A stretch of DNA of 64,000 bases from Tagaea sp. (GCA_965228135.1 OZ245798.1:1803037-1867036); one strand, 5' to 3'; counted from the stretch's first letter, positions 13,449-47,768 are shown. The notes: generated by a model not told the origin, from the letters alone. Made by a program: numbers and translations.

Positions 13449-13461
13449 CACTTCAAACCAA

Positions 13462-14961: not shown

Positions 14962-15042
14962 AAAAATAATTCCATCATCCTCTAATATAAGTCCAATATC
15001 ACCAATCACTGCCCAATCGGCAATGTTTCATAGGCGGCTAAA

Positions 15043-16152: not shown

Positions 16153-16262
16153 GCCAGGCGATGCATACGATGGAACGGCTCGACAAAAACTGCGCGTCTA
16201 GCATCCGGGTAAAGGCAAACGGCTAAGCCGACGGCATGGACAAAAAACCGACTTCGCGGTTG

Positions 16263-17222: not shown

Positions 17223-17288
17223 GAAGCATGCTCCTCAGTTTGCGTGCGCGCTTTCGAGTGCGCCCTAACAAACCGATTATCCACGACC

Positions 17289-17424
17289 GCTCTTAAAAAC
17301 CGCTGCGCGGCGACGTGCCTCCGCCCCTAGATGCCCAGCCATTTTCGACACAGTCAGCAAGGCTTCGTCGAAAACGACGCTCTGCCAAGAATCCGTCTGT
17401 TCGGGCGTAGGCGTTTTTAAGACG
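17289..17424. repeat. inverted-repeat pair CTCTTAAAAACCGC ... GCGTTTTTAAGAC (site A), arms about 105 bp apart
   Basis: Left arm 17289-17304 and right arm 17410-17424. The same motif recurs upstream of the recombinase gene at 21296-21346. Confidence 0.6.
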
Positions 17425-17450
17425 ACTGCCCCTACACTTGCCCTTGTCCG

Positions 17451-17481
17451 CACCGGGCGCTCCCGATGGGAGCGCCCGGTG
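17451..17481. repeat. perfect 14-bp inverted repeat with a 3-nt spacer
   Basis: CACCGGGCGCTCCC-gat-GGGAGCGCCCGGTG in the relaxase upstream region. Confidence 0.8.
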
Positions 17482-17521
17482 CCAAGAGATTACGAGCGGC
17501 CGCAACAGCGGCCGCCCTATT

Positions 17522-17555
17522 CCCTAGTCGGGGACGGCCACGTCCCCGACTAGGG
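17522..17555. repeat. perfect 15-bp inverted repeat with a 4-nt spacer (candidate oriT hairpin or terminator)
   Basis: CCCTAGTCGGGGACG-gcca-CGTCCCCGACTAGGG, about 50 bp before the annotated relaxase start codon. Confidence 0.8.
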
Positions 17556-17612
17556 CGCAATTACGCATTCGCTGCTTCAGGGCAACACGAATGCAGGCTG
17601 TTGGAGGTCTAA

Positions 17613-21074: not shown

Positions 21075-21295
21075 AGAGCCCCTCACTGACCATGGCCGAC
21101 CTAGCAAGCTACGGGGCGAAGCAATTCGCTGGGGAGATCTACCAAGCAGCTCGGTCAATGCGCGATGAGAGCCAAGCTTTGGATAGCCTCGCGCCCGACG
21201 CGGAGCACGGAGGCAAGACAGCCGCCACGACACCGCCCAAGACGGCTCGACGGATATCCATCTAAGTTATTGTAAATAATATACTATTTAGATTT

Positions 21296-21346
21296 CTCTT
21301 AAAACCGCTCGAAAGAGCCAAGCCGCGACGCGGCCGTTTTTAAGAC
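21296..21346. repeat. inverted repeat CTCTTAAAACCGCT-(22 bp)-GGCCGTTTTTAAGAC (site B) after an AT-rich stretch; candidate recombinase/att or oriT-like site
   Basis: Same arms as site A at 17289/17410. Preceded by ctaagttattgtaaataatatactatttagattt, about 240 bp upstream of the recombinase start. Confidence 0.55.
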
Positions 21347-21581
21347 CCCAGCTTGACAATGTCCGCATGGATAGGACGAGCAAATCCAGCGGCCGGGGCG
21401 GCATCTACGCCCCTGAGCCGGCGCCCAGCGAGGGCGCCGGCGGCCGATCAGATTCGTCCTCGACCCTCCATGCCCAAGCGAACGAACTTCTACGTACCCT
21501 TGCACGTCTGCTTGTGCACGACAGCGAATTGCAGCAGCCTCAAGCGCCGATGGATAAGACCTCAGATCAGCCGAAGGACGA

Positions 21582-23243
21582 ATGCAAATGATCAGGGCTG
21601 CGATCTACGCACGCTATTCCAGCGACTTGCAGCGCGAATCCTCGATCGACGATCAGGTCAGAATTTGCCGGGAGCGGATCGAACGCGACGGCGGCGCCGT
21701 TACGGAAACCTACGCCGACGCAGCGATCAGTGGATCGCGTGCAGCAAACCGCCCTTCACTTCAACGACTGGTAAGCGACGCTCGCCTTCGTCGGTTCACT
21801 CACGTCTATATGGAGGCGCTGGACCGACTGAGTCGCGACCAGGAAGACGTTGCCGGACTGTTCAAGCGGTTACGTCATGCGGACGTGACCGTCATCACGT
21901 TGAGCGAGGGCGAAATCAGCGAACTGCACGTCGGGCTAAAGGGCACGATGAACGCCCTCTACCTAAAAGACCTTGCTGACAAGGTACGACGCGGCCAGCG
22001 CGGCCGTGTGGCCCAACAACGAGCGGCAGGAGGACTCGGATACGGATACGATGTCGTTCGGAACATCGACAGCGATGGCGAGATCGATCGTGGCGTCCGC
22101 GCGGTCAACGAGACCGAGGCAGGCGTGATCCGGCGTATTTTTGGCGAGTATGTGGCTGGTAGATCACCCCGCACCATCGCACGAAACTTGAATGCAGATG
22201 GCGTTCCTGCGCCGCGCGGGGGCGCCTGGAATGCGTCAACAATAAATGGGCATCCCGTGCGCCTGCACGGTATCCTGACAAATCCCTTATTCAATGGCGT
22301 GATGATCTACAACCGTGTCGGTTATCGCAGGGATCCAGAAACGGGAAAGCGTCAACTCCGCTCGGTACCATCGGACCAATGGGTCCATGTTGAGATGCCG
22401 CATTTACGTATCGTCGACCCTGATACTTGGAACAAAGCACAATCGATTCGAGGCCAACTCGGTCAGACAAAGCGCCTAAACCATACTCATAGGCCCAAGC
22501 ACCTGCTGTCGGGGCTCATACGTTGCGGCATTTGTGGCGGAGCATACACGGTGGTCGCCTCAGGCCGACTTGGCTGTGTTGCACGCCGCGAAAAAGGGAC
22601 ATGCACCAACGCGCGGTCGGTAAAAACCGAGGAACTAACCACACGCGTGCTATCGGGAATCAAACAGCGCCTTCTGTCTCCTGCGATGTTCGCCGAATTT
22701 ATGGAAGAATTTCAGGCGACGCAGTCCGCCCGCGATAAGGCCGAGATCGACAACATGGCCGCACTCCGTCGAGAAGAGCGGGAACTCAATCAGCGAATCG
22801 AACGTTACGTGACCGCTATTGGGGATGGAACAGACAGCCCTGCAGTTCGGAAAGCCCTAATCGAGGCAGAGAATCGGATCGCCGCGATTCGCGCCGAAAT
22901 GTGCAAATCCAAACCGCCGTCGGCCCCCGAACTGCATCCGGCGTTACCTGAGCTATACCGTCGGCGCGTCGAGCAGCTTGAACACGCGTTCGCCAATGAC
23001 CCGACAAACAGAGCGCGAGCTGCCCAGATCATCCGGTCCCTCGTGGAGCAGATTCGGGTATTTCCCCAGGACGCGCGCGGTGCTGTCGAAATTGAGGTCG
23101 CAGGCGCCATCGCCCAGATACTGGCGTTGGCACAACAAAAAGACGTCGAAGATCAAATGGATGGAATGATGGTCTCGATGGTGCCCGGGGCCGGAATCGA
23201 ACCAGCGACACTGCGATTTTCAATCGCATGCTCTACCAACTGA
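21582..23243 (+). CDS. large serine recombinase (resolvase/invertase N-terminal domain, recombinase domain, zinc ribbon, coiled-coil)
   Basis: AAIYARYSSDLQ (catalytic Ser), LDRLSRD, and CGICGGAY...C..C zinc ribbon. The last ~22 codons read through the tRNA-Phe gene on the opposite strand. Confidence 0.9.
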   Translation: MQMIRAAIYARYSSDLQRESSIDDQVRICRERIERDGGAVTETYADAAISGSRAANRPSLQRLVSDARLRRFTHVYMEALDRLSRDQEDVAGLFKRLRHADVTVITLSEGEISELHVGLKGTMNALYLKDLADKVRRGQRGRVAQQRAAGGLGYGYDVVRNIDSDGEIDRGVRAVNETEAGVIRRIFGEYVAGRSPRTIARNLNADGVPAPRGGAWNASTINGHPVRLHGILTNPLFNGVMIYNRVGYRRDPETGKRQLRSVPSDQWVHVEMPHLRIVDPDTWNKAQSIRGQLGQTKRLNHTHRPKHLLSGLIRCGICGGAYTVVASGRLGCVARREKGTCTNARSVKTEELTTRVLSGIKQRLLSPAMFAEFMEEFQATQSARDKAEIDNMAALRREERELNQRIERYVTAIGDGTDSPAVRKALIEAENRIAAIRAEMCKSKPPSAPELHPALPELYRRRVEQLEHAFANDPTNRARAAQIIRSLVEQIRVFPQDARGAVEIEVAGAIAQILALAQQKDVEDQMDGMMVSMVPGAGIEPATLRFSIACSTN

Positions 23244-23254
23244 GCTACCCGGGC
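23179..23254 (-). tRNA. tRNA-Phe (anticodon GAA)
   Basis: Minus strand reads GCCCGGGTAGCTCAGTTGGTAGAGCATGCGATTGAAAATCGCAGTGTCGCTGGTTCGATTCCGGCCCCGGGCACCA. This is a canonical 76-nt cloverleaf, near-identical to E. coli tRNA-Phe, with CCA encoded. Confidence 0.95.
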
Positions 23255-23298
23255 ACCGGGCTCGTGGGAGGCGTGTATAGGGCCTGCCCGGAAACCTG

Positions 23299-30893: not shown

Positions 30894-31583
30894 CTAGAAA
30901 CCGGCGCCCGGCTTGGACAAATAGGCCTTTTCGGCCTCGGTGCTCGCCCGCCCCAGGATCGCATTTCGATGCGGGAATCGGCCGAATTCGGCGATCACGG
31001 CGCGATGCTTATGGGCGTAATCGACGACGTTCGCGCGCCACGGCGTTTCGGGCAAAGCTTCCATCAGGACGCAGGCTTCGTCCTGCGCGGCGCGGTCCTC
31101 GGCATGCTCGAACGGCAGATAGACGAACATCCGCGCGACCGGATCGAGCGTGCGGTCGAAACCCTTGGCGACCGTCGCGCGCGCGGCCGCCAGCGCCATC
31201 GCGTCGCTCGCGAAGGCTTGCGGCGTGCCGCGATGGAGATTGCGCGGCGCCTGGTCGAGCAGAAGGATGAGGGCGAGCGAGCCCTCCTCCGTATCGAGCC
31301 ACGCTTTGAGCTCGTCCTTCGCCGCACGCTCGGCCAAGGCCCCGAGCTTCGCGCGGCATTCGGCGTCGAACGCATCGTCCTTCGCGAACCACGCTTTGCG
31401 GAATTCGCCGGGCTCGCCCGCGAACCAGAAATCGAGAACGCCGCGGATCGCCGCTTCGGTTTCGGCCGCTTCGCGCCCGCGCGCCTGGGCTTTGCGTTTG
31501 CGCAAATTCATGCGCAACGCTTCGGCCTCGCGCGTCTTGCGCCGCGCCTCTTCGAGCTGGGCGTGCAGGTTCTTCGCGGTCAT
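30894..31583 (-). CDS. DUF924-family protein
   Basis: [11 protein letters not shown]...YLPFEHAED...[23 protein letters not shown]. It is the C-terminal 229 aa of an over-extended track ORF, and its start overlaps the MFS stop (ATGA). Confidence 0.7.
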
Positions 31584-32788
31584 GGGCGGGGCGCCAATCG
31601 GTTCGCCAGGAACGCGAGCGTCGAGCAGCCCGCCATCACCGCGCACATCGGCAAGGCGGTGCCGTTGTCGAACAGCCCGGCGAGCACGCTGGTGAGCGCG
31701 CCCACGCCGAATTGCAACGCGCCCGCCAAGGCCGAAGCGGCACCGGCGATATGCGGGAACGGCGACATGGCGCCGGCCATCGAATTCGCGCCGATCATGC
31801 CCATCGTCGCCATCAGCAGGAAGATCGTCACGACCAGCCCGGCGAGACCGCCGAAGCCCGTGACACCGACGGCAAGGATCGCCAATCCCACGAACAACGC
31901 CACCGTATGGCCGAAGCGCAAGGTGCGATCGAGCCCGAAGCGCGGCATGAAGCGGCCGTTGAGCGTGCTCGACAGCATCATCGCGATCACGTTCAGCCCG
32001 AACAGGAAGCCGTAATATTGCGGCGGCACGCCGAAGATCTCGATGTAAACGAAAGGCGTGCCGGCGATATAGGCGAACATGGCGCCGAAGAAGAACGCGC
32101 CGCCGAACGCGTAGGACAGGAATCGGCGGTTGAACGCGAGTTCCGTATAGGCCGCCAGGATCGAGCGCCAATGCGCCGAGCGGCGTTTGTCGTCGCCATG
32201 CGTTTCCGGGATCTTGAACAGCACCGACAGCACGATCAGGGTGGCGATCACCAGCACGACGAAAATCGCGCGCCAGCCCAGCCACAACTCGATCATGCCG
32301 CCGATCATCGGGGCCAGCATCGGGGCCGCCCCCATCACCAGCATCATCATCGACATCATCACGCCCGCGCGCTCGCGATCGAACACGTCGCGCACCATCG
32401 CGCGTACCATGACCGGCGTCACGCACGCCCCCACCGCCTGCAGGAAGCGCGCGGCGATCAGAAAATCGTTGTTGGGCGCCAGGGCCGCCGCGATCGACCC
32501 GGCGGCGAAGATCAGCAATCCCGCGACCGCGGGCCAACGGCGGCCGAACCGATCGCCGATCGGGCCCCAAACGAGTTGCCCCACCCCGAAGCCGGCGAAG
32601 AAAACGCCAAGGGTCAGCTGCACCTCGTGCTGGCTGGCCCCGAATTCGCGCCCGATCGCCGGCAAGGCCGGCAGATACATGTCGACCGAGAGCGGGGTCA
32701 GGCCCATCAACCCGCCCAGAACGGCCACGAAAACCCTGTCGCCCGGCCAGGGACTCGGCCGAGGCCCACCTTCCAACGCCTTGAACAT
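31580..32788 (-). CDS. MFS transporter, Bcr/CflA drug-efflux family
   Basis: 12-TM protein with GxLaDrfGRR-like motif (GPIGDRFGRRW). Confidence 0.85.
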   Translation of the reverse strand: MFKALEGGPRPSPWPGDRVFVAVLGGLMGLTPLSVDMYLPALPAIGREFGASQHEVQLTLGVFFAGFGVGQLVWGPIGDRFGRRWPAVAGLLIFAAGSIAAALAPNNDFLIAARFLQAVGACVTPVMVRAMVRDVFDRERAGVMMSMMMLVMGAAPMLAPMIGGMIELWLGWRAIFVVLVIATLIVLSVLFKIPETHGDDKRRSAHWRSILAAYTELAFNRRFLSYAFGGAFFFGAMFAYIAGTPFVYIEIFGVPPQYYGFLFGLNVIAMMLSSTLNGRFMPRFGLDRTLRFGHTVALFVGLAILAVGVTGFGGLAGLVVTIFLLMATMGMIGANSMAGAMSPFPHIAGAASALAGALQFGVGALTSVLAGLFDNGTALPMCAVMAGCSTLAFLANRLAPRP

Positions 32789-32811: not shown

Positions 32812-33687
32812 TTAGATCGCGTCGAGCGGGATTTTCAGATAGCGCGTGCCGTTGGCCTCGGGCGGCGGCAATTCGCCCGCCCGAATATTGACCTGGATCG
32901 AGGGCAGCAGCAGCACGGGGGCCGCCAGCGTCTTGTCGCGGGTTTCCCGCAGTTTCACGAAGGAATCCTCGTCGATCCCGTCGCGGACATGGATATTCCC
33001 CGCGCGCTGTTCGGCCACGGTCGTGGACATGCGCGGCCCTCGCGTTTCCGGGGGATAGTCATGGCAGACATGCAGGATCGTATCGCCCGGCAACGCCAAA
33101 ACACGCCGGATCGAGCGATACAGCGTGCGCGCGTCGCCGCCGGGAAAGTCGCAGCGTGCCGTGCCCAGATCGGGCATGAACATCGTGTCGCCCAGGAAGA
33201 TTTGCGCCGGCCCTTCGCCCGTTTCCAGCGCCAGCATGGTGCAGGACGGCGTATGGCCGGGCGTGCTCCATACCGTGAATTTCGCGGCGCCCAATTCGAT
33301 CGTATCGCCTTCCGCGAGCAGGCGATCGAATTGCCGCCCGTCGACCGGGAAATCGGGGCCGAAATTGAAAATCCGTGCCCAGGTCACCTGCACTTTGCCG
33401 ACCCGCGTTCCCGTCGCGATCTTGGCGCCGTAGCGATGCTTGAACCAGGATGCCGCCGACAGATGATCGGCATGGGCGTGGGTTTCGATTGCCCAGTCCA
33501 ACGTGCAATCGCCGATTAAGGCGGCGAGTTTTTCCGCCGTCGCGGTCGAAATTCGACCCGATTTGGGATCGAAATCGAGAACCGGATCGATTACCGCCGC
33601 ACGGCGCGCCTTGCGATCGGCGACGACATAGCCGACCGTCCCCGTGACGGGATCGAAAATCGCATCGACGGTGATCGCGTGCGCCAT
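32812..33687 (-). CDS. MBL-fold metallo-hydrolase, persulfide dioxygenase (ETHE1)-like
   Basis: ETHAHADH metal motif; GDTMFMPDLGTARCDFPGGDARTLYRSIRRVLALPGDTILHVCHDY parallels ETHE1 GDTLF..GRTDF...TLY.S....LPGD..LYPGHDY. Confidence 0.65.
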   Translation of the reverse strand: MAHAITVDAIFDPVTGTVGYVVADRKARRAAVIDPVLDFDPKSGRISTATAEKLAALIGDCTLDWAIETHAHADHLSAASWFKHRYGAKIATGTRVGKVQVTWARIFNFGPDFPVDGRQFDRLLAEGDTIELGAAKFTVWSTPGHTPSCTMLALETGEGPAQIFLGDTMFMPDLGTARCDFPGGDARTLYRSIRRVLALPGDTILHVCHDYPPETRGPRMSTTVAEQRAGNIHVRDGIDEDSFVKLRETRDKTLAAPVLLLPSIQVNIRAGELPPPEANGTRYLKIPLDAI

Positions 33688-33747: not shown

Positions 33748-34278
33748 ATGTCCGATCCCGTCCGCGAAGTCGACGCCCCCACCCTCAAATCCTGGCTGGA
33801 GCGCGGCGAGGCCGTGCTGGTCGACGTGCGCGAGGAAAACGAGTTCGCGCGCGAAAGCATTCCGGGCGCCACGTTGGTGCCGTTGTCGAAATTCGATCCG
33901 GCGCAAGTTCCCGCCGCGAACGGCAAGAAGCTGGTCGTGCATTGCCTCTCCGGCAAACGCTCGGCCAATGCGCAAGCCCAGCTCGCCAAAGCCGGCATCG
34001 ACGCGATCAACTTCGCCGGCGGCATCATGGGCTGGAAAGCGGCGGGCTATCCGATCCGCGAAAACAAGTCGGCTCCCCTGCCGATCATGCGCCAAGTGCA
34101 GATCGCGGCGGGTTCGCTGGTGCTGATCGGCGCGGTGCTCGGCACCTTCGCGCATCCGGGCTTCTACGGATTGTCCGCCTTCGTCGGCGCGGGTCTCGTT
34201 TTCGCGGGCGCCACCGGCTGGTGCGGCATGGCCAGCGTGCTGGGCCTTTTGCCGTATAACCGCGCTTCCAAGGGCTGA
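33748..34278 (+). CDS. rhodanese-domain sulfurtransferase fused to a DUF2892 (YgaP-like) membrane domain
   Basis: Active-site CLSGKRS; two C-terminal TM helices. Confidence 0.8.
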   Translation: MSDPVREVDAPTLKSWLERGEAVLVDVREENEFARESIPGATLVPLSKFDPAQVPAANGKKLVVHCLSGKRSANAQAQLAKAGIDAINFAGGIMGWKAAGYPIRENKSAPLPIMRQVQIAAGSLVLIGAVLGTFAHPGFYGLSAFVGAGLVFAGATGWCGMASVLGLLPYNRASKG

Positions 34279-34333: not shown

Positions 34334-35248
34334 ATGCCCTTCACCTTAAGCGGCGGCGAAATCGTTCTGATCGCGCTGGCGATCTTCTTCCTCGGCTTCG
34401 CGGCGACGGCGATCAAGATCGTCCCGCAATCCGAGGAATATATCGTCGAGCAATTCGGCAAATATGTCGGCACGCTGAAAGCGGGTCTGCATTTCGTGCT
34501 GCCGATCGTCAACCATGTCGCGCACAAGGTCAGCGTCCTCGAGCGTCAGCTCGAACCGCAGCAGATCAGCGTCATCACCAAGGACAATGTCGAGATCAGC
34601 CTGACGACGGCAGTGTTCTTCCGCATCGTCGACGCGTCCAAATCCGTCTATCGCATCTCGAACGTCGATCAGGCGGTCAAGACGACGGTGACCAGCATCG
34701 TGCGCTCGACCTGCGGCCAGCTGGAATTCGACGAAATCCAATCGCGCCGCGACCATATCAACGAACAGATCAAAGCGTCGCTCGGCGAAGCCTGCGGCGT
34801 GTGGGGCATCGAGATCACACGCACCGAAGTGCTCGACGTGTCGGTCGACAGCGCCACGCGCACCGCCATGCAGCAGCAATTGAACGCCGAGCGCGAACGC
34901 CGGGCGGCCGTCACCAAAGCCGAAGGCGACCGCCAAGCGCAGCAATTGAAGGCGGACGGCGAGCTTTACACCGCGCAAAAACACGCCGAGGGGCGCCGCG
35001 TTCTGGCCGATGCCGAAGCCTATGCCACGCGCACGGTGGGCGATTCGATCCGCGACAACGGCCAAGCCGCGATCGATTTCGAAATCCGCAAGAAGCAGAT
35101 CGAAGGCCTGACCGAACTCGGCCGCTCGCCCAACACCAAGCTGCTGGTCTTGCCGACCGACGTGACCCAAACCTTGGGCACGGTCGCGGCGGTCGTCGAA
35201 GCGCTGAAAGACGGCCCCGCCGGAAAGGCCTCGCCGTGGAAATCTTAG
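34334..35248 (+). CDS. SPFH/band-7 (stomatin-like) protein
   Basis: N-terminal TM plus SPFH domain (IVPQSEEYIVEQFGKY...VITKDNVEISLTTAVFFRI). Confidence 0.85.
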   Translation: MPFTLSGGEIVLIALAIFFLGFAATAIKIVPQSEEYIVEQFGKYVGTLKAGLHFVLPIVNHVAHKVSVLERQLEPQQISVITKDNVEISLTTAVFFRIVDASKSVYRISNVDQAVKTTVTSIVRSTCGQLEFDEIQSRRDHINEQIKASLGEACGVWGIEITRTEVLDVSVDSATRTAMQQQLNAERERRAAVTKAEGDRQAQQLKADGELYTAQKHAEGRRVLADAEAYATRTVGDSIRDNGQAAIDFEIRKKQIEGLTELGRSPNTKLLVLPTDVTQTLGTVAAVVEALKDGPAGKASPWKS

Positions 35249-35511: not shown

Positions 35512-35894
35512 TCGGGGCTGCGGCCCAAGGCGCGCAGCGCTTCGCGCGTGCGCTCGATCTCGTCCTGGATGACGCGGCGATAGGCTTCGTAGAGCCCGGG
35601 CGGAATATTGTCGAACGTGCCGGTCTGGCTCGCGCGCAATTGCGCCAAGCGGCGCTCGAGGCGGAACACTTGCGCGGCGTTGTCGTCCGCGCGCCCCGCT
35701 TCCAATCGCGTGACGATCGACGCCAAGCGCTCGCGCAACGCCTTTCGCATGTCTTCGTCCAGCGGCCGGTCGAGCAGGACTTCCATCTGCGCCGCGAGTT
35801 TCTCGAATTCGAAACGCACATCGACCGGCGGGCGCTGCTCCTGCGCAAGCGCCGGCATCGCAATTAGCGCAAGAAGGAGGGCCAGCGCCCTCAT
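35508..35894 (-). CDS. hypothetical secreted/periplasmic protein
   Basis: Signal peptide MRALALLLALIAMPALA; the real CDS is the C-terminal 128 aa of an over-extended track ORF. Confidence 0.5.
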   Translation of the reverse strand: MRALALLLALIAMPALAQEQRPPVDVRFEFEKLAAQMEVLLDRPLDEDMRKALRERLASIVTRLEAGRADDNAAQVFRLERRLAQLRASQTGTFDNIPPGLYEAYRRVIQDEIERTREALRALGRSPD

Positions 35895-36538
35895 GTGCCT
35901 TTGGCGTGATGGTAGACGTGCCACAGAAACAAGGCGCCGGCCGAACGATGCGGGCGCCAGGCCTCGCCCAATTTGCGCAAGCGCTTCTCGTCGGGGCGGC
36001 TGCGCAGATTCTTCAAAATGCGCATCGCTTCCTGCAAGGCGAGATCGTTGCCCGGCCAGATATCGGGCCGGCGCATCGCGAACAGCAGATAGATCTCCGC
36101 ACTCCAGCGGCCGAGGCCCTTCAACTGCGTGATCGTCGCGATCGCTTCTTCGTCCTCCGCCACATGCAGATCGTCGAAATTCAGCGTGCCCGACACGACC
36201 GCTTCGGCAAGGCCCCGGATATACGAGGCCTTCTGCCGCGACAGGCCCATCGTCCGCAGCCCTTCGTCGGGCGTTTCGATGACGCGGATCGGTTCCATCG
36301 CACCGAGCCCCGCTTCGAGCTTGTTCCAAATGCCCGTCGCGGCCGCGACCGAAACCTGCTGCGCCACGATGGCGCGCGCGAAACCGACGAAGCCGATCGG
36401 CCGCGCGCGCGGCTTGGGATAGCCGATGCGCGGCAGCCATTCGGCGACATGCGGATCGAGCGCGGCAAGCTGATCGATGCCCCGGCGCAGATCGCGCCGC
36501 GCCTTCGCTTCCGAGACGGTTTGGAGCTGCGGGGGCAT
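35891..36538 (-). CDS. DNA-3-methyladenine glycosylase II-like (HhH-GPD family)
   Basis: HhH-GPD motif region LKGLGRWSAEIYLLFAM....D. Confidence 0.75.
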   Translation of the reverse strand: MPPQLQTVSEAKARRDLRRGIDQLAALDPHVAEWLPRIGYPKPRARPIGFVGFARAIVAQQVSVAAATGIWNKLEAGLGAMEPIRVIETPDEGLRTMGLSRQKASYIRGLAEAVVSGTLNFDDLHVAEDEEAIATITQLKGLGRWSAEIYLLFAMRRPDIWPGNDLALQEAMRILKNLRSRPDEKRLRKLGEAWRPHRSAGALFLWHVYHHAKGT

Positions 36539-36550
36539 AGCGGCCGGGCG

Positions 36551-37666
36551 TCAGGCGTGCGTGTGGCTCAACGTGTCGGTCAGCGTCGTCAAGCGCGCGA
36601 GCAGATAATCCGCCGTATCCGGATCGGCGTCGTCGACCTTGGTCAACACGCGCTCGATCATCTTGCGCCGGAAGCGTTCGCGATCGGCGGGGCCGCCGTC
36701 ATATTGCGTTTCCAGCGCGACTTCGAGGGCTGCCTTCACCGCCGGATACAAAGCGGGCGGCATATAGGCGCGCTCGTAGATGTATTTGAGGCCGCCGGCC
36801 GGATCGTAGATTAGCTGGCGCGCGCGCTCGATCGGGAAATCGGCGCGCAAGGCAAGGCCGCGCTCGAACAAGAACAGATCGCCCATGCACAACGCGCGAA
36901 TGACGATGCCGGGATCGAGACGGCCGGTCGAGTGAAGCTGGGCGGCCAAGGCCGCGACATCCTGCTCGCCCGATTCCAATGATGTGCCGACGGTCGCGAT
37001 TTCGCGCGCACTGGCGGCGAGGCTGGCGGCGAGATCGGGCGACACGTCGTCGCGCGCGATCAGCTTTTCCTTGATCGATTCCGAGGCGAGCGCGTAGAGC
37101 TTTTCGAGGGCGCGCACCGGCAGCTTGCGCCGCAGGGCGAGTTTTTCCTGCACCAGCGACGCCTTGCCGTGCTTGTCGACCAGACGTTCGGCCGTCGCTT
37201 CCGACAAAGCCGCCCCGTCATTGCCGGCGAGCGTGGCGGCGACGCGCGTCGTGCCTTCGTCGACCAGCGTGCGCGCGACCGCGTCGGACACCGTCTTACG
37301 GCCGGCGATGGCGACCTGCTTTTCCTCGGACTGCGACTTCACGATCTCGACGAGTTCGGCGTCGGAGAAGGCGAGCGATTCGCGCAGCAGCGGCAATGCG
37401 ACGTCGTCGATATCCTTGGCGAGGGCGAGGCCCAAACCTTGCGGCAATTGCGGCGCGCTGCGCAGATGCTGGGCGAGCGCTTGGCGCACGGTCGCCATCG
37501 CGTCCTGCGCCATCAGCATCAGCACGTTTTCGGCTTCCGCGCGTTCCTTCGCCGACAAGCCGGTGTCGGAATAGACGGCGGCGACTTTCGCCGCCATCTC
37601 GGCGCGCGTCGCGGCGGATTGATCGTCCGCCAGTCGCGCGATGTCGGCTGGGGTGAGCTTGGCCAT
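36551..37666 (-). CDS. DUF2336-family protein
   Basis: About 370-aa helical-repeat protein; the start is taken at MAKLTPADIARL. Confidence 0.45.
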   Translation of the reverse strand: MAKLTPADIARLADDQSAATRAEMAAKVAAVYSDTGLSAKERAEAENVLMLMAQDAMATVRQALAQHLRSAPQLPQGLGLALAKDIDDVALPLLRESLAFSDAELVEIVKSQSEEKQVAIAGRKTVSDAVARTLVDEGTTRVAATLAGNDGAALSEATAERLVDKHGKASLVQEKLALRRKLPVRALEKLYALASESIKEKLIARDDVSPDLAASLAASAREIATVGTSLESGEQDVAALAAQLHSTGRLDPGIVIRALCMGDLFLFERGLALRADFPIERARQLIYDPAGGLKYIYERAYMPPALYPAVKAALEVALETQYDGGPADRERFRRKMIERVLTKVDDADPDTADYLLARLTTLTDTLSHTHA

Positions 37667-37834
37667 GCCGTTATTCTCCGCTCGCCGACGGGGTACCGGC
37701 AAGGCGCGAATGCGCCGCGCCGGCCGATCCCGTCACATGAACATTCTGCATCGTTACCCCGATCTTTCGCAACCGTTTGACGGCCCTACCCCCCGCCCGT
37801 ACAACGATCCCAGGCATACGGGGAGAATCGCGCG

Positions 37835-40675
37835 ATGGATGGGGGCGAACGGGTCGAACTGTCGAGGCCCGTGGGCGACACGGTCAAAGCGACCACCTGC
37901 TATATGTGCGCCTGTCGTTGCGGGATCAAAGTTCATCTCCAAAACGGCCAAATCCGTTACATCGAGGGCAACAAGGATCACCCGGTGAACCGCGGCGTGT
38001 TGTGCGCCAAGGGTTCGGCCGGGATCATGAACCATTACAGCCCCGCAAGGCTGAGGAAGCCCTTAAAGCGCGTCGGCGAACGCGGCACGGGCGATTTCGT
38101 CGAAATCGAGTGGGACGAAGCGCTGGGAATGCTGACCGATCGCCTGGCCCATATCCGTGCCACCGATCCCAAGAAGCTCGCCTTCTTCACCGGCCGCGAC
38201 CAAAGCCAGTCTTTGACCGGCTGGTGGGCCAATCAATTCGGCACCCCCAATTTTGCGGCGCATGGCGGCTTCTGCTCGGTCAACATGGCCGCCGCCGGGC
38301 TTTACACGATCGGCGGTTCGTTCTGGGAGTTCGGCGAGCCCGATTGGGACCATGCCGAGTACTTCCTTATGTTCGGCGTGGCCGAAGATCACGATTCCAA
38401 TCCGATCAAGGCCGGTATCGCCAAGCTGAAGGCGCGCGGCGCCAAGTTCGTGTCGGTCAACCCGATCAAGACCGGCTACCAAGCCGTGGCCGACGAATGG
38501 ATCGGCATCGCCCCCGGCACTGACGGGCTGCTCGTGATGGCGCTGATCCACGAGCTGCTCAAAGCCGACAAGATCGATCTCGATTTTCTGGTGAAATACA
38601 CCAACGCGCCGTGGCTGGTGCGCGCGGATGACGGCTTGTTCGCACGCGACGCGAGCGGCAACCCGCTGTGCTGGGATTCGCGCACGAAAGCGCCGGCGAA
38701 CGCGCTCTCGGTCGATGTGCAGCCCGCCCTGGTCGGCGAATTCACGTTGCCCGACGGCACCAAGGCGACACCTTCGTTCGAGTTGATGGCGCGGCGCTAT
38801 CTGTCGCCCGACTACGCGCCCGAAGCGGTCGAAGCGCAATGCGGCGTTCCCGCCGAAACGATCAAGCGCATCGCCGCCGAGTTGGCGCATGCCGCGTTCG
38901 AGAAGCAAATCACGCTCGACCAGCCTTGGACAGATTGGGCCGGCCGCCGACACGAGAAGACCGTGGGACGGCCGGTGTCGATGCATGCGATGCGCGGCAT
39001 CTCGGCGCATTCGAACGGCTTCCAAACCTGCCGCGCGATCCATGTGCTGCAAATCCTGCTCGGCGCCATCGATGGGCCGGGCGCGTGGCGTTATAAATCG
39101 CCCTTCCCGCGCCCCTGCCCGCCGGGCCCCAAACCCACCGGCAAGCCCGAGCAAGTCGCCCCCAACAAGCCGCTGGGCGGCATGCCGCTCGGCTTCACGC
39201 TGGGGCCGGAAGATCTGCTGCTCGACCATGGCGGCAAGCCGATGCGCATCGACAAGGCGTATTCGTGGGAATCGCCGATCGCGGCCCACGGCCTGATGCA
39301 TATGGTGATCGCCAATGCCTGGGCCGGCGATCCCTACGAGATCGACACGCTGTTCATGTACATGGCGAACATGGCGTGGAACTCGTCGATGAATTCGTCG
39401 GGCACGATGCGCATGCTGACCGACAAGAAGGCGGATGGCAGCTATCGCATACCCTTCATCGTCTATGCCGATGCCTATGCCAGCGAGACGGTCGCCTATG
39501 CCGATCTCGTTTTGCCCGACACGACGTATCTGGAACGTTGGGACTGCATCTCGCTGCTCGACCGGCCGATCGGCTCGCCCGAAGGTCCGGGCGACGCGAT
39601 CCGCCAGCCGGTGGTGAAACCCGATCGCGACGTGCGCCCCTTCCAGGACGTGCTGATCGATTTGGGTGCACGCCTCAAACTGCCGGGCTTCACCGAAGCC
39701 GACGGCAAGGCGAAATTCCCCGGCGGCTACGCCGATTACATCGTCAACCATCAACGCAAGCCCGGCGTGGGGCCGCTTGCGGGCTTCCGGGGTGCGGATG
39801 GCAGCAAGTCGGGCGTGGGCGAGCCCAATCCCGATCAGCTCCAGCGCTATATCGACAATGGTGCTTTCTGGCGCCATCACCTCGAACCCGATCAGCTCTA
39901 TTACAAGCATGCGAATAAGGGCTATCTCGACGCGGCCGTGAAACTGGGCCTCATCGACAAGCCCGATCAGATCGTCATGCAGATCTATTCGGAGCCGTTG
40001 CAGCGCTTCCGCAACGCCGCACGCGGGATCGGGCCTGTGCCCTGCCCGCCCGAGCATCGCGCGCGCATCGAAGCCTATTGCGATCCGCTGCCCTTCTGGT
40101 ACGCGCCCTTCGAAGGCGAGCGCATCGCGAAAGATCAATTCCCGCTGCACGCGATCACGCAGCGCCCGATGCCGATGTATCATTCTTGGGGCTCGCAGAA
40201 CGCGTGGCTGCGCCAGATCATCAGCGAGAACCGGTTGTACGTGCATCGCGAAACGGCGAAGGCGCACGGTCTCGCCGACGACGATTGGGTATGGATCGTG
40301 TCGCATCACGGCCGCGTGAAAGGGCAGATCAAGACGATGGAGGGCGTGAACCCGCTCACCGTCTGGACCTGGAACGCGATCGGCAAGCGCAAGGGGGCGT
40401 GGAACCTTTCCGAAGATTCGCGCGAGGCGAACCGGGGCTTCCTGCTCAACCACGCGATCTCGGAACTTCTGCCGGCCAAGGACGGCGAAGGCCGCGTGTC
40501 GAATTCCGATCCGATCACCGGCCAAGCCGCCTGGTTCGATCTGCGCGTGCGGCTCGAGAAAGCCGATCCGGTCGAGGCGGGCGTTACGTCGCCCTTGCAT
40601 CCCGCGCTGGGATTGCCGCCCAACATGCCCGCCCGCCCCGACATTTTGCGCTACGGCAAGGAATTCCGCCGATGA
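37835..40675 (+). CDS. molybdopterin-dependent oxidoreductase catalytic subunit (DMSO reductase family), no Tat signal; SoeA-like
   Basis: N-terminal 4Fe-4S Cys cluster CYMCACRCG...C and a 946-aa molybdopterin-binding fold. There is no twin-arginine leader, so it is predicted to face the cytoplasm. Confidence 0.8.
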   Translation: MDGGERVELSRPVGDTVKATTCYMCACRCGIKVHLQNGQIRYIEGNKDHPVNRGVLCAKGSAGIMNHYSPARLRKPLKRVGERGTGDFVEIEWDEALGMLTDRLAHIRATDPKKLAFFTGRDQSQSLTGWWANQFGTPNFAAHGGFCSVNMAAAGLYTIGGSFWEFGEPDWDHAEYFLMFGVAEDHDSNPIKAGIAKLKARGAKFVSVNPIKTGYQAVADEWIGIAPGTDGLLVMALIHELLKADKIDLDFLVKYTNAPWLVRADDGLFARDASGNPLCWDSRTKAPANALSVDVQPALVGEFTLPDGTKATPSFELMARRYLSPDYAPEAVEAQCGVPAETIKRIAAELAHAAFEKQITLDQPWTDWAGRRHEKTVGRPVSMHAMRGISAHSNGFQTCRAIHVLQILLGAIDGPGAWRYKSPFPRPCPPGPKPTGKPEQVAPNKPLGGMPLGFTLGPEDLLLDHGGKPMRIDKAYSWESPIAAHGLMHMVIANAWAGDPYEIDTLFMYMANMAWNSSMNSSGTMRMLTDKKADGSYRIPFIVYADAYASETVAYADLVLPDTTYLERWDCISLLDRPIGSPEGPGDAIRQPVVKPDRDVRPFQDVLIDLGARLKLPGFTEADGKAKFPGGYADYIVNHQRKPGVGPLAGFRGADGSKSGVGEPNPDQLQRYIDNGAFWRHHLEPDQLYYKHANKGYLDAAVKLGLIDKPDQIVMQIYSEPLQRFRNAARGIGPVPCPPEHRARIEAYCDPLPFWYAPFEGERIAKDQFPLHAITQRPMPMYHSWGSQNAWLRQIISENRLYVHRETAKAHGLADDDWVWIVSHHGRVKGQIKTMEGVNPLTVWTWNAIGKRKGAWNLSEDSREANRGFLLNHAISELLPAKDGEGRVSNSDPITGQAAWFDLRVRLEKADPVEAGVTSPLHPALGLPPNMPARPDILRYGKEFRR

Positions 40676-41403
40676 CGGCTTATACGCAAAGCTCGAAGCG
40701 CTTAGGCTTGGTCATCGACCTCGATACCTGCGTGGGCTGTCATGCCTGCGCGGTGAACTGCAAGGAATGGAACACCGGCGGCCATTCGGCCCCGTTGCCC
40801 GATCGCGAGCCTTACGGCGCCGATCCGGCGGGCGTGTGGTTCAACCGCATCCACACGTTCGAAGCGGGCGAAGGCTCGACCAGCCGCACCGTCCATTTCC
40901 CGAAATCCTGCCTGCATTGCGCCGAGCCGTTGTGCGTCACCGTCTGCCCGACGGGCGCTTCGTACAAGCGCACCGAAGACGGCATCGTGCTGGTCAACGC
41001 CGATTCCTGCATCGGCTGCAAGCTGTGCTCCTGGGCCTGCCCCTATGGCGCGCGCGAGTTCGACGACGACGACGGCGTGATGAAGAAATGCACGTTGTGC
41101 GTCGACAAGATCTATAACGAGACCTTGCCCGAGGCCGAGCGCGTGCCGGCTTGCGTTTCGACCTGCCCCGCTTCGGCGCGGCATTTCGGCGATCTGGGCG
41201 ATCCGGACTCGGCCGTGTCTCAGCTTGTCGCTGAGCGGGGTGGATACGCGCTGATGCCCGAAATGGGCTACGCGCCGACCAATCGCTATCTGCCGCCGCG
41301 CGGCGCGAAGACCGCGAAAACCTGCGCGTCCCTCGAAACCAAGGTCGATCCCAACGCGCTGCATCCCGTGCTGCGCTGGGTCGACAAATTCCTGTCGCGT
41401 TGA
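40672..41403 (+). CDS. 4Fe-4S ferredoxin-type electron-transfer subunit; SoeB-like
   Basis: Four Cys clusters (CVGCHACAVNC, CLHCAEPLCVTVCP, CIGCKLCSWACP, CTLC...C..C). Translationally coupled to the catalytic subunit (ATGA). Confidence 0.8.
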   Translation: MTAYTQSSKRLGLVIDLDTCVGCHACAVNCKEWNTGGHSAPLPDREPYGADPAGVWFNRIHTFEAGEGSTSRTVHFPKSCLHCAEPLCVTVCPTGASYKRTEDGIVLVNADSCIGCKLCSWACPYGAREFDDDDGVMKKCTLCVDKIYNETLPEAERVPACVSTCPASARHFGDLGDPDSAVSQLVAERGGYALMPEMGYAPTNRYLPPRGAKTAKTCASLETKVDPNALHPVLRWVDKFLSR

Positions 41404-41410
41404 ACAATCC

Positions 41411-42358
41411 ATGCATCCCGCCCTTTCCGTTATCGTTTTCACGACCGCCTCGGGTGCCGGCTACGGCCTGCTGGCGCTGATCGGTTTGTTCAACGCGCTG
41501 GGCTTGATCCCGGCCGCGTCGTGGTTCGGCTTTTGGGCGCTGGGCCTGGCGCTGATCCTGATCGCGGGCGGTCTGCTGACCTCGACCGCGCATCTGGGCC
41601 ATCCGGAACGCGCGTGGCGCGCGGTCACACAAGTGCGTACATCGTGGCTCAGCCGCGAAGGTGTGGCATCGCTGCTGACCTTCCTGCCCTTCGGCGCGTT
41701 CGGGATCGGCTGGGTGTTCTTCGCCAAGACCGAAGGTGTGTGGGCGCTATCGGGCCTGATCGCGGCGTTGGGATCGGCGATCACCGTGTTCACCACGGCG
41801 ATGATCTACCGCTCGCTGAAGCCGATCCACCAATGGCACAACACGCACACCGTGCCGGTCTATCTGGCGCTGGCGCTGGCGACCGGCGCCGTGCTGCTCA
41901 ACGCCCTCACGCTGCTGTGGGGTCATCCGCAGAAAGCCGTCGGCGTCGTCGCGCTGATCGCGTTGCTGCTGGGCTATGGGGCCAAGCGCCGCTATTGGCA
42001 TTTCATCGACACAACGAAATCGGCCTCGACGCCCGAAAGCGCCACCGGCTTGGGCGCGCGCGGCAAGGTGCGCTTGTTCGAGGCCCCACATCAGGCCGAT
42101 AATTATCTGATGCGCGAAATGGGCTTCCAAGTCGCGCGCAAGCACGCGGCGAAATTGCGCAACATCGCGGTGCAGACGCTGTTCGTCGGCCCGCTGATCC
42201 TAACGCTGTTGGCTTTGGTGCTGCCCGGCCCCGCCGCCGCCTTCGCCGCCGTGTTGGCGGCGGCGAGCGCGACATTGGGGGTCGGCGTCGAGCGCTGGCT
42301 GTTCTTCGCCCAAGCCAAGCACAGCGTGACGCTCTATTACGGCGCCACCGAAGTTTAG
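41411..42358 (+). CDS. DmsC-family membrane anchor subunit; SoeC-like
   Basis: 8-TM hydrophobic protein of DmsC/NrfD-like length directly downstream. Confidence 0.7.
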   Translation: MHPALSVIVFTTASGAGYGLLALIGLFNALGLIPAASWFGFWALGLALILIAGGLLTSTAHLGHPERAWRAVTQVRTSWLSREGVASLLTFLPFGAFGIGWVFFAKTEGVWALSGLIAALGSAITVFTTAMIYRSLKPIHQWHNTHTVPVYLALALATGAVLLNALTLLWGHPQKAVGVVALIALLLGYGAKRRYWHFIDTTKSASTPESATGLGARGKVRLFEAPHQADNYLMREMGFQVARKHAAKLRNIAVQTLFVGPLILTLLALVLPGPAAAFAAVLAAASATLGVGVERWLFFAQAKHSVTLYYGATEV

Positions 42359-43089
42359 CGGCGCTTCTTCTTTTTCTGCTCGGCGGCGAAGGCCGCACTC
42401 ATTTCCGCTTCCGGCGGATAGAGGCCGAAGATCGACTGGCCCTTCATCACGCGCTTCTCGACGAAGTTCTCGAACTCCGTCATGCGCGTCGCTTCCTCGG
42501 CGATTTCGTCGGCGAGATGTGCTGGGATCACCGCCACCGCTTCGCCGTCGCCCACGATCACGTCGCGCGGATAAACGGCCACATCGCCGCAACCGATCGG
42601 GTTGTCGATGTCGAGCGCGTGATGGCGCGTCAAGTTCGTCGGCGAGGACGGACGATTGGCATAGGCCGGGAAGCCCAATTCGACGATCGCCGGCGTATCG
42701 CGGAAGCCGCCGTCGGTAACGACACCGGCGACGCCGCGCTTCATCAGGCGCGTGACCAGAATATTACCGGCCGATGCGGCCAGCGGATCCTTGCGCGAGT
42801 CGATCACGAACACGCAGCCCGGCGGGCATTGTTCGACCGCGACGCGCTGGGGATGCTTGCGCCCCGCGAAGCCGGAGATCACGTCGAGATCTTCGCGCGC
42901 GGGGATGTAGCGCAGCGTGAACGCCTCGCCCACCATGTTGGCGCGGCGCTTGCCCACGGGCGCGACCGGGAACACGCCCTGCATCACGACGTTACGGAAG
43001 CCCTTCTTCATCAGGGCGGTCGACAGGGTCGCAACGCTGACCTTCGACAGGGCGGCGCGCGTTTTCGCGGAAAGCGGTTTGTTGGCCAT
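42355..43089 (-). CDS. RraA-family protein (RNase E regulator / 4-hydroxy-4-methyl-2-oxoglutarate aldolase-like)
   Basis: GDVAVYPRDVIVGDGEAV...GVVTDGGFRD. Confidence 0.7.
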   Translation of the reverse strand: MANKPLSAKTRAALSKVSVATLSTALMKKGFRNVVMQGVFPVAPVGKRRANMVGEAFTLRYIPAREDLDVISGFAGRKHPQRVAVEQCPPGCVFVIDSRKDPLAASAGNILVTRLMKRGVAGVVTDGGFRDTPAIVELGFPAYANRPSSPTNLTRHHALDIDNPIGCGDVAVYPRDVIVGDGEAVAVIPAHLADEIAEEATRMTEFENFVEKRVMKGQSIFGLYPPEAEMSAAFAAEQKKKKRR

Positions 43090-43225
43090 GTTCCTCACGC
43101 TACCGCCGCAACAGCGCGGCGGCGTTTTTGATGTTGTGCGTCAGTCAGTAGCATAAGGCCGCGCAAACGACTAGCGCGGGCAATCTTTTCGCACTGGAAA
43201 CAGTGCAACCGTTTGTCTTGGGTCG

Positions 43226-44722
43226 TTACGGCGCGTCCCGCATCCGGCGATGCACGGGGCAAGGTGCCGATCCATGCGCGAGGCAGAACGTGCCGACGAA
43301 TTTCGACATCTCGGCGGCGGCACTCGCCGCCCCCGCGTTGACGGCATCGAGGCGTGCGGCGGCCGCCTCCGCCTTGCGGCGCAACGACGCCTCGTCGATC
43401 GTCAGCAACTTGCCGTCCGCCAGCACAATGCGGCCCGCGATCATCACCTTGTCGATCGACGCGCCGGACTCGCCGAAAACGGTCTGCGTCATCGGGTTCC
43501 GGAACGGCACGAAATTCGGCGCGTCGAGGCGCAGGAACACGATATCGGCGGCGTAGCCGGCGGCGAGTTTGCCGATCTTGTCGAAGCCCAGCAGTGCCGC
43601 CGAGCCTTCAGTCGCCAACGCAAAGGCTTCGTCGGCCGACAGCCAGCGTTCGAAATCGGGCCCGCGCAGCCGCGACAGGAACGAGGCAAGCCGCGTCGCC
43701 TCGAACATATTCTGCCCGTCCGACGTATTCGTCGCATCGGTGCCGATGCCGACGCGCAAACCCGCGTCGAGCATTTCGCGCGCGGCGGCCACACCCGAAC
43801 CCAAGCGCAGATTGCTGGGCGGGTTATGCGCAACGGATGCGCCCTTGGCGGCGAGGCGCTTGATGTCGTCCGGCTCCAGCCAAATGCCGTGCGCGCCGCT
43901 GAACTCCGGCCCGAGCACGCCGAGCTTGTCGAGATGCTCGACCATCGTGCAGCCGTAACGCGCGCGCGCGGCGATGGCTTGGGGCTTGGACTCGCAAAGA
44001 TGGGTTTGAAAGCGCAAACCGGTCTCGCGCGCGAGGCGCGAAGAAGCGATCAGGAATTCGTCGCTGGCATGCAACGGAATGGTCGGCGCCACGCCGGGGC
44101 GCACCATCGTCCGGTCATGCGGCCATGTCTCGATCGTTTTGCGCAACGTCGCGAGGCTGACCTCGAAACCCTGCATCGCCATCGCGGCGGCTTTGGATTT
44201 ATGCGGCTCCGGGATCGCGTCGAGCAACGCCGGGAAGGCTTGGAACAGCGTGCGATCGGCGAGCATCGGGGCGACGACCGCGCGCATGCCCGCATCGGCA
44301 TAGGCTTGCCCCACCGCGTGCGCGCCTTCGACCGACGGCGTGGGAATCTCGACGAACAGATCGAACGCCGCCGTGCAGCCGCGCCGGATCGATTCCACCG
44401 CCGACAAGGCGGCCGAGATGTATTTGTCCTCCAGCGTGCGCGATCCGTTGATCGCCCCGTTGCCGTTGAGGAACAATTCCAGCGGCACACGGTCGGCGAC
44501 CGCCCCGCGCCCCAACCCGCCATGGGCATGGGTGTGCGAATTGATTAGGCCGGGGATCAGCAGCCGGTCGGACGCGTCCAGCGTTTCGGCTGCGGGCGCA
44601 TCGATCTTGCCGATTTCGGCGATAGCCCCATCGACGACCAGAATGTCGGCGTGCGGCGCTTGTCCGGTTTTGGAATCGAGAACGCGCCCGCCGGTGATTT
44701 TCAGCGGGCGCGTTCCGGTCAT
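43226..44722 (-). CDS. amidohydrolase-family deaminase (guanine/cytosine/8-oxoguanine deaminase-like)
   Basis: LIPGLINSHTHAHG metal motif, HLCES, GIGTDATNTSD. Confidence 0.75.
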   Translation of the reverse strand: MTGTRPLKITGGRVLDSKTGQAPHADILVVDGAIAEIGKIDAPAAETLDASDRLLIPGLINSHTHAHGGLGRGAVADRVPLELFLNGNGAINGSRTLEDKYISAALSAVESIRRGCTAAFDLFVEIPTPSVEGAHAVGQAYADAGMRAVVAPMLADRTLFQAFPALLDAIPEPHKSKAAAMAMQGFEVSLATLRKTIETWPHDRTMVRPGVAPTIPLHASDEFLIASSRLARETGLRFQTHLCESKPQAIAARARYGCTMVEHLDKLGVLGPEFSGAHGIWLEPDDIKRLAAKGASVAHNPPSNLRLGSGVAAAREMLDAGLRVGIGTDATNTSDGQNMFEATRLASFLSRLRGPDFERWLSADEAFALATEGSAALLGFDKIGKLAAGYAADIVFLRLDAPNFVPFRNPMTQTVFGESGASIDKVMIAGRIVLADGKLLTIDEASLRRKAEAAAARLDAVNAGAASAAAEMSKFVGTFCLAHGSAPCPVHRRMRDAP

Positions 44723-44732: not shown

Positions 44733-45767
44733 TCAGTTCGTGAGATAGACCAACTCGCGCTCGGCGCGCGGCGGCAGGAAGGAGCGGTTGAAAATCTCCG
44801 ACGGCACCGGCGTGCGGGTCAAGCCATAACCCTGCACGACCATGTCGATCGAGCGCGCCAACCGGTCGTCCTTCACGTCGCCCGCCCCGATCTCCTTCGC
44901 TTCGGCCGAGATCATCAGCTTTTCATAGGCGAAGCGCAGGCGGCGCTGCTCGACCGGAATATCGACCAGCTGGTCGAACTTCTTCACGGACTCCATGGCG
45001 CCGCCGATATCCTTGCCGACGTCGATCGTGGCTTGGCTGACGGCGCGCACGAGGCCCTGCACCGCGCGGGGATTTTCCTTCAGCAGCTTCTGCGAGACCA
45101 TCAACCCGTTCGAGTAGAGGTCCATACCGAAATCGCCGAACGAGAACCACGTATAGTCCTTGTCCGGATCTTGGCCGAGACCGACCAAGTTGAAGTAGCT
45201 GGTGATGTTGAACACCATCGCCGCATCCATATGACCCTGGATCAGCATCGGCTCCTGCAGATTGGGCGCCATGGTGGTGAACTTGATCTTGGCGAGGTCG
45301 AGATTGTTGACCTTGGCGAAGACCGGCATCAGCCGCGTGGTCGGCGTGCCTTGCGCACCGCCCAGCGTCTTGCCTTCGAAATCCTTGATCGTCTTGATGC
45401 CGCTGGCGTTGCGCGCCACCACGGCGAAGGGCGGCTGCGTCCACATCTGGAACACCATCACCGGCGCCATGCCGGGCGAGGCCGACGCGTTCTGAATGAT
45501 CGCGTTGATGTCGCCGAAGCCCGCATCATAGGCCCCGCCCATGATGCGCGTGATCGTGGCGCCCGAGCCTTCGCCCTGGTCGATGACCACGTTCAAGCCT
45601 TCGCGCGCGAAATAGCCCTTGTCGCGCGCCACGAAGAACGCGGCGTCCGAACCCTGGGTTTTCCAGCCCAGGGTGAAGCGGATCGTGGTCGGTTGCTGGG
45701 CAAGTGCGCTGCCCGCCGCCAAGGCAAAAGCGCCGGCGAAGGCCAGGGTTTTGAGCAGATTCCGCAT
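44733..45767 (-). CDS. ABC transporter substrate-binding protein, NMT1/THI5-like (SsuA/TauA/HMP family)
   Basis: Signal peptide MRNLLKTLAFAGAFALAAGSALA plus a periplasmic binding fold. Confidence 0.7.
   Translation of the reverse strand: MRNLLKTLAFAGAFALAAGSALAQQPTTIRFTLGWKTQGSDAAFFVARDKGYFAREGLNVVIDQGEGSGATITRIMGGAYDAGFGDINAIIQNASASPGMAPVMVFQMWTQPPFAVVARNASGIKTIKDFEGKTLGGAQGTPTTRLMPVFAKVNNLDLAKIKFTTMAPNLQEPMLIQGHMDAAMVFNITSYFNLVGLGQDPDKDYTWFSFGDFGMDLYSNGLMVSQKLLKENPRAVQGLVRAVSQATIDVGKDIGGAMESVKKFDQLVDIPVEQRRLRFAYEKLMISAEAKEIGAGDVKDDRLARSIDMVVQGYGLTRTPVPSEIFNRSFLPPRAERELVYLTN

Positions 45768-46049: not shown

Positions 46050-47768
<1,719 letters not shown>

Follow-up and report, generated by a model that had tools for sequence, protein, structure and literature searches.

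A 64,000-nucleotide stretch of a Tagaea sp. genome (GCA_965228135.1, OZ245798.1:1803037-1867036; hereafter the window) carries at positions 37835-42358, on the plus strand, what is in all probability the soeABC operon of this member of the Rhodospirillales, encoding a membrane-bound sulfite:quinone oxidoreductase that would face the cytoplasm. The SoeABC layout suggested for these genes in the first-pass annotation is supported by family placement, by the SoeA labels that JGI gives to related proteins, by operon order and by sulfite-related neighbours, and we infer that sulfite is the substrate and that the enzyme works in the oxidative direction. Three co-oriented genes stand here in the order catalytic subunit, iron-sulfur subunit, membrane anchor, and every feature that had been ascribed to them is present:

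37703-37834, plus strand: divergent intergenic region 5' of soeA, with a Shine-Dalgarno sequence (read from the sequence)
37835-40675, plus strand: soeA, catalytic subunit with a molybdenum-bis(pyranopterin guanine dinucleotide) (Mo-bisPGD) centre, 946 aa, 104.6 kDa (Pfam domains and open reading frame)
40672-41403, plus strand: soeB, electron-transfer subunit, 243 aa, 26.3 kDa (open reading frame and ferredoxin models)
41411-42358, plus strand: soeC, membrane anchor of the DmsC/NrfD type, 315 aa, 33.5 kDa, pI 10.2 (Pfam DmsC)

The operon and its three subunits

The stop codon of soeA (TGA) overlaps the ATG of soeB by 4 nt (ATGA), and given this overlap the two genes are translationally coupled. 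soeC follows soeB after a gap of 7 nt, and the GC content at third codon positions, 0.81-0.85 in soeA, soeB and soeC, is typical of real genes in a window of 65% GC. The Shine-Dalgarno sequence GGGGAG is located at 37820-37825, 9 nt 5' of the soeA ATG. The promoter presumably lies within 37703-37834; a consensus sigma-70 scan of this region found no promoter, and a consensus scan for promoters and terminators around soeABC gave nothing meaningful, the counts being at the level of shuffled sequence.

As the soeA frame contains an in-frame TGA at 37778 and no ATG, GTG or TTG from there to the ATG at 37835, the N-terminus of SoeA cannot be extended and a leader for twin-arginine translocation (Tat) is excluded. 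The motif for the [4Fe-4S] cluster FS0, C22-x2-C25-x3-C29...C57, leaves just 21 residues ahead of C22, and no RR motif occurs in residues 1-80. The 946-aa catalytic subunit is thus without a twin-arginine leader, as first annotated, and the same stop codon excludes a cryptic Tat signal behind a corrected start, the finding that had been named in advance as one that would speak against the SoeABC layout.

SoeA matches the Pfam domains Molybdop_Fe4S4 (PF04879), Molybdopterin (PF00384) and Molydop_binding (PF01568), and alignments of 12 and of 64 sequences show C22, C25, C29 and C57 to be invariant or conserved to at least 90%. In a phmmer alignment Cys147 falls opposite Cys173 of Thermus thermophilus PsrA (2vpw_A), which we take to be the molybdenum ligand of that enzyme, and Cys147 is the predicted molybdenum ligand of SoeA. 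The AlphaFold2 model of SoeA (pLDDT 84.5, pTM 0.88) matches the fold of ArrA, PcrA and PsrA at 15-21% identity in a fold search of the PDB; the hits were generic Mo-bisPGD proteins, and no solved SoeA was among them.

SoeB has 16 cysteines in four ferredoxin groups of the CxxCxxCxxxC type and one extra cysteine, a pattern that suggests four [4Fe-4S] clusters; together with the ATGA overlap this bears out the earlier description of a coupled 243-aa four-cluster ferredoxin. The protein matches Pfam Fer4_11 and related domains and NCBIfam models of the DsrO, DmsB and TtrB type, and no signal peptide was found at its N-terminus, which starts MTAYTQSSKRLGLVIDLDTC. Since neither SoeA nor SoeB has a signal sequence, piggy-back export of one subunit by the other is not available.

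SoeC, annotated at first as a 315-aa DmsC-like anchor, does match Pfam DmsC (59 bits, E = 6e-16); it has eight hydrophobic segments and no cysteine at all, and is predicted to be a quinone-interacting anchor of the DmsC/NrfD type with eight helices and without heme or another cofactor. Lysine and arginine together number 19 in the loops on the side of the N-terminus, among them a basic loop of 60 residues (191-250), versus 1 in the loops on the other side. The positive-inside rule, taken alone, suggests an N-in/C-in topology, which would agree with the prediction of Calisto and Pereira that SoeC is inverted with respect to PsrC and DmsC (PMC8076601).

Family placement and related loci

The initial proposal of SoeABC was made for Ruegeria pomeroyi (SPO3559-3557; Lehmann et al. 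2012); Allochromatium vinosum (Alvin_2491-2489; Dahl et al. 2013) provided genetic evidence, and Aquifex aeolicus the purified enzyme (Boughanemi et al. 2020). The three studies are quoted here after PMC8076601, PMC6335251 and PMC4334477. The Tagaea operon shares with these systems the A-B-C gene order, a Mo-bisPGD subunit with an N-terminal FS0 and without a Tat signal, a four-cluster iron-sulfur subunit and a heme-less eight-helix anchor of the NrfD/DmsC type that is predicted to face inward, and no structural difference was found. Relatives at 66-69% identity share the R. pomeroyi type of synteny, with pta-soeABC and a MocR regulator. What differs is the gene context, which in the window consists of a persulfide dioxygenase, a rhodanese and a divergent DUF2336 gene, whereas in purple sulfur bacteria it is dsr or sox and in roseobacters taurine genes.

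Thousands of relatives were retrieved from 5.8 billion proteins searched, the best 120 of them being 69-96% identical to SoeA across the full length. At 70-88% identity, many bear the JGI name "sulfite dehydrogenase (quinone) subunit SoeA". The exact sequences of SoeA, SoeB and SoeC are already in a public collection, on one contig, and the 90% cluster of SoeA includes Tagaea sp. proteins, three of them JGI-labelled SoeA; NCBI calls members of this cluster "molybdopterin oxidoreductase family protein" or "formate dehydrogenase". The top genome match is a Tagaea metagenome-assembled genome (MAG), at 97%. A relative is present in at least 596 species representatives in a scan of one genome per GTDB species, and soeC was reported in 100 alphaproteobacterial species in KEGG (PMC8076601). 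The soeABC of Tagaea is therefore an ordinary, already known system, its exact sequence being public and near-identical proteins being labelled SoeA. The expectation in the first-pass annotation that such a function would be noteworthy for this organism does not hold, as the same locus occurs in all Tagaea genomes recovered and relatives are spread over the species representatives just mentioned.

In a neighbour-joining tree with 200 bootstraps, SoeA of the window lies within a clade of 100% bootstrap support that holds sequences from Alpha-, Beta- and Gammaproteobacteria with identities of at least 59%, and the motif TTCYMCACRCGI is common to all its members. The beta branch consists of proteins that are also JGI-labelled SoeA, and those beta-type members in which the full N-terminus was read have no twin arginines; the clade sequences derived from loci begin at the tBLASTn match, and Tat-less status was read from database proteins with full N-termini. 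The nearest Tat-bearing relatives are outgroups at 32-36% identity, P0182 (RRRHFLQGAG) and P0307 (SRRDFAKL); overall, identity to Tat-bearing relatives does not exceed 38%. Five full-length outgroups from the representative search were usable (P0164, P0169, P0170, P0182 and P0307), the others being mostly fragments or frameshifted. Cluster look-ups of these five returned almost no names, and a search with the beta-type representative P0164 returned Burkholderiales-type SoeA proteins only and no A. vinosum reference.

We compared the operon with the 80 best loci of the genome scan, nearly all of them labelled Alphaproteobacteria, with a few MAG titles naming other groups, and none of them from a reference organism; recurrent neighbours are the annotated ones among the 30 most frequent clusters in these loci. 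The order soeA-B-C is kept wherever the contig leaves room, soeB coming directly after soeA in 73 of 82 loci and soeC after soeB in 68. Genes that recur in the neighbourhood are a divergent GntR regulator of the MocR type (11 loci), a gene of the TauE/SafE sulfite exporter family (8), alanine dehydrogenase (7), a LysR regulator (7, in Mesorhizobium) and a homologue of the persulfide dioxygenase (7), which in L020, L022 and L050 is directly divergent to soeA; a rhodanese is also found near soeABC in L030 and L070. Locus L036, from the Rhodobacterales, has a phosphate acetyltransferase gene (pta; 337 bits, above the cut-off) that ends 9 nt before soeA, and Kiloniella laminariae (L027) has a pta-like gene together with a MocR regulator ahead of soeA. 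This arrangement mirrors that of R. pomeroyi, with soeC, soeB, soeA and pta in this order (SPO3557-3560) and tauR as SPO3562 (PMC4334477), and the SoeA proteins of L036 and L027, 66-69% identical to the window protein, belong to the same clade.

Two further arrangements were seen around soeC in these loci. A Paracoccaceae MAG (L022) has a second Mo-bisPGD oxidoreductase gene at 15656-18022, plus strand, about 1 kb downstream of soeC; its product of 788 aa has PhsA as best model (235 bits), and as its Fe4S4 motif starts at about residue 8 a Tat leader is seemingly missing there too. In eight loci of Hyphomicrobiales type (L047, L049, L054, L056, L057, L067, L071 and L074), often also with the divergent MocR regulator, a gene with a homocysteine S-methyltransferase domain (PF02574) lies just downstream of soeC, a hint that methylated sulfur or betaine-type substrates may be involved.

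Sulfite-related neighbours in the window

Genomic association of soeABC with genes that produce or handle sulfite is observed across these loci. In the window the operon has the following neighbours:

31580-32788, minus strand: MFS efflux pump
32812-33687, minus strand: type II persulfide dioxygenase (PDO; structure and profile matches)
33748-34278, plus strand: membrane-anchored rhodanese with a YgaP-like transmembrane domain (Pfam Rhodanese and YgaP-like_TM)
34334-35248, plus strand: SPFH/Band-7 protein
35891-36538, minus strand: HhH-GPD glycosylase
36551-37702, minus strand: DUF2336/SpbR-family protein (Pfam DUF2336, 218 bits)
42355-43098, minus strand: RraA-like protein (RraA-like/aldolase gene)
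43226-44722, minus strand: amidohydrolase
44733-45767, minus strand: NMT1-type binding protein
46098-47768, plus strand: leuA

Persulfide dioxygenases make sulfite in the cytoplasm (see also PMC11507549, PMC6335251). The PDO of the window matches structures of type II persulfide dioxygenases (PDB 4ysk/4ysl) over its full length with 346 bits, as well as ETHE1, and the dioxygenase part of the NCBIfam Blh model with 335 bits. It lies with the divergent rhodanese 3.5-5 kb upstream of soeA, the other full-length Tagaea loci (L001, L003, L005 and L006) show the same synteny as the window, and a PDO homologue is found 2.9-4.1 kb upstream of soeA in all Tagaea loci. The PDO is the probable upstream supplier of sulfite for SoeABC, and the rhodanese would be its sulfurtransferase partner.

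The DUF2336/SpbR-family gene is divergent from soeA across the intergenic region of 132 bp, an adjacency present only in the Tagaea loci L001-L006, and its product scores 384 bits with the NCBIfam SpbR model, just below the cut-off of 400. The literature found under the name "SpbR" concerns unrelated proteins or a Caulobacter ClpXP substrate and has no tie to sulfur metabolism. It is conceivable, if rather doubtful, that in Tagaea soeABC does not act alone in detoxification but forms the end of a fixed chromosomal module, running from the PDO through the membrane rhodanese to SoeABC, that oxidises sulfide or persulfide in a heterotroph, with the DUF2336/SpbR-family protein as its dedicated regulator or assembly factor; were the DUF2336 protein to serve such a module, this would be the first metabolic role for DUF2336.

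Variation among the Tagaea loci was noted at two places. The SPFH/Band-7 gene between the rhodanese and glycosylase genes is present in the window and in L003 and is absent from a 96%-identical Tagaea contig (L001), which has an opposite-strand open reading frame of 127 aa in its place. On the other side of the operon, the stop of soeC and the stop of the convergent RraA-like/aldolase gene overlap by 4 nt (42355-42358), leaving no room for a terminator between the two genes, and L003 carries an insertion of about 4 kb at this point.

Alternative readings and proposed function

Several points weigh against the assignment to SoeABC. Membership of SoeA in the family is drawn from automated orthology labels, clade placement and synteny. 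There is no NCBIfam equivalog for SoeA, the best curated model being PhsA with 239.3 bits vs a cut-off of 694, and the cluster-mates of SoeB and SoeC have generic names only. In the window three unrelated genes separate the PDO and rhodanese genes from soeABC, so that co-regulation would be conjectural.

The operon might instead encode a reductase of the Psr/Phs/Sre/Ttr type that faces the cytoplasm, or another Mo-bisPGD enzyme with a different sulfur compound or oxyanion as its substrate, a reading we consider very unlikely. It draws on the curated model and the PDB sequence that match best, which are PhsA (E = 7e-71) and PsrA (2vpw_A, E = 3e-40), and on the molybdenum-ligand cysteine common to SoeA and PsrA (Cys147 and Cys173). 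In addition, some databases name relatives 'sulfur reductase chain A', 'formate dehydrogenase' or 'DMSO reductase', and sulfite oxidation has been shown for only a few members of the family. SoeA and PsrA also have the same fold (TM-score to T. thermophilus PsrA, 2vpw-2vpz, of 0.77 normalised to PsrA and 0.61 to the query), and the two systems share the A-B-C architecture. Against this reading, identity to solved structures is only 15-21% (21% to PsrA) and the scores are far under every family cut-off, not only for PhsA but also for DmsA/YnfE (TIGR02166; 159 vs 777.7), TtrA (108 vs 1750) and Fdh-alpha (133 vs 666). As no NCBIfam equivalog comes near its cut-off, the NCBI annotation library holds no model for the SoeA family. 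The enzymes considered in this reading are all Tat-exported, PsrA and PhsA being periplasmic reductases, whereas SoeA of the window cannot be exported in this way, is about 200 residues longer and is combined with an anchor of predicted inverted orientation. Finally, the neighbouring genes indicate production and handling of sulfite and not anaerobic respiration.

DmsABC resembles the Tagaea enzyme as a heterotrimeric complex iron-sulfur molybdoenzyme, to which SoeC is linked by the match to Pfam DmsC and SoeB by that to DmsB (131 bits). DmsA differs in having a Tat leader, and its model stays below cut-off at 159 bits. The molybdenum ligand of DmsA is a serine, whereas SoeA of the window has a cysteine at the position of the PsrA ligand.

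The remaining alternative was raised in the first-pass annotation, namely a phenylacetyl-CoA:acceptor oxidoreductase of the PadBCD type, which converts phenylacetyl-CoA to phenylglyoxylate in the anaerobic catabolism of phenylalanine or phenylacetate. Its appeal was the same general three-subunit architecture, PadBCD of Thauera, Azoarcus and Aromatoleum likewise being a membrane-bound Mo-Fe-S enzyme that passes electrons to quinone, and the presence of aromatic-catabolism genes elsewhere in the window. The features in question, with the mobile island next to them, are:

827-2314, minus strand: homogentisate 1,2-dioxygenase (hmgA)
3087-4058, minus strand: separate reductase
4055-6391, minus strand: 778-aa P450 fused to a PaaE/BenC-like reductase
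6411-10967, minus strand: five-gene Liv-type ABC transporter
11008-12186, plus strand: Rieske-type oxygenase-like gene
12598-13353, plus strand: IclR regulator
17613-21074, plus strand: 1153-aa protein with a MobA/MobL relaxase domain, in the low-GC stretch
21582-23243, plus strand: large serine recombinase, in the low-GC stretch
23179-23254, minus strand: tRNA-Phe, at the end of the low-GC stretch

We give the PadBCD reading almost no weight. The genes at 827-12186 are an aerobic aromatic and xenobiotic set; they are oxygen-dependent, lie more than 25 kb from soeABC and are separated from it by the low-GC mobile island. In published pad clusters padBCD occurs together with padJ (phenylacetate-CoA ligase) and padEFGHI (phenylglyoxylate oxidoreductase) (PMC4453571, PMC5109826), whereas neither padJ nor padEFGHI is found among the window's open reading frames that were scanned or among the annotated recurrent neighbours in the 80 related loci. 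The name PadB is attached to none of the approximately 360 close relatives listed. The subunit masses point the same way, as those encoded here (104.6, 26.3 and 33.5 kDa) are unlike the 93, 27 and 26 kDa that Rhee and Fuchs in 1999 reportedly found for the Thauera Pad enzyme, the SoeC anchor in particular being larger than the 26 kDa subunit. They fit A. vinosum SoeABC, which is of about 109, 27 and 36 kDa.

One outgroup protein, P0169 (Tat-less, 898 aa, 44% identity), was tried as a PadB and rejected: it is an orphan, closest to SoeA proteins of the beta type (about 46%), with no PadB-named protein among these relatives. As to the island itself, the stretch of about 10 kb at 13300-23260 has 55-58% GC vs about 65% elsewhere and almost no open reading frames with host-like third-position GC, and the serine recombinase frame overlaps the tRNA-Phe gene, on the opposite strand, by about 65 nt. 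It has the look of an integrative mobilisable element at tRNA-Phe; direct repeats (att sites) were looked for on both sides and not found.

Returning to SoeABC as the preferred assignment, we propose that sulfite would arise in the cytoplasm, with the PDO and the rhodanese as its likely local source; organosulfonate desulfonation, which is suggested by the gene context in other Alphaproteobacteria, and the turnover of cysteine or sulfide could also supply it. SoeA would oxidise sulfite to sulfate at its Mo-bisPGD centre, with Cys147 as the protein ligand, and two electrons would pass from FS0 of SoeA through the four [4Fe-4S] clusters of SoeB to a quinone site of SoeC on the cytoplasmic face, where the SoeB-docking loops of SoeC would also be located. 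The quinol could then feed the aerobic respiratory chain. The sulfate/sulfite couple is at about -516 mV, and with ubiquinone as acceptor the reaction is strongly exergonic.

In general, SoeABC is the main cytoplasmic disposal route for toxic sulfite derived from persulfide dioxygenase, from organosulfonate desulfonation and from sulfur oxidation, and its activity feeds electrons to the quinone pool. NCBIfam contains no model for SoeA, SoeB or SoeC, near-identical Tagaea proteins appear in NCBI as 'formate dehydrogenase', 'molybdopterin oxidoreductase family protein' or 'DMSO reductase (anchor subunit)', and the UniRef name of an Afipia relative is 'Sulfur reductase chain A'. Owing to this systematic gap in annotation, the sulfite-oxidising capacity of heterotrophic Alphaproteobacteria such as Tagaea is easily missed when genomes are surveyed.

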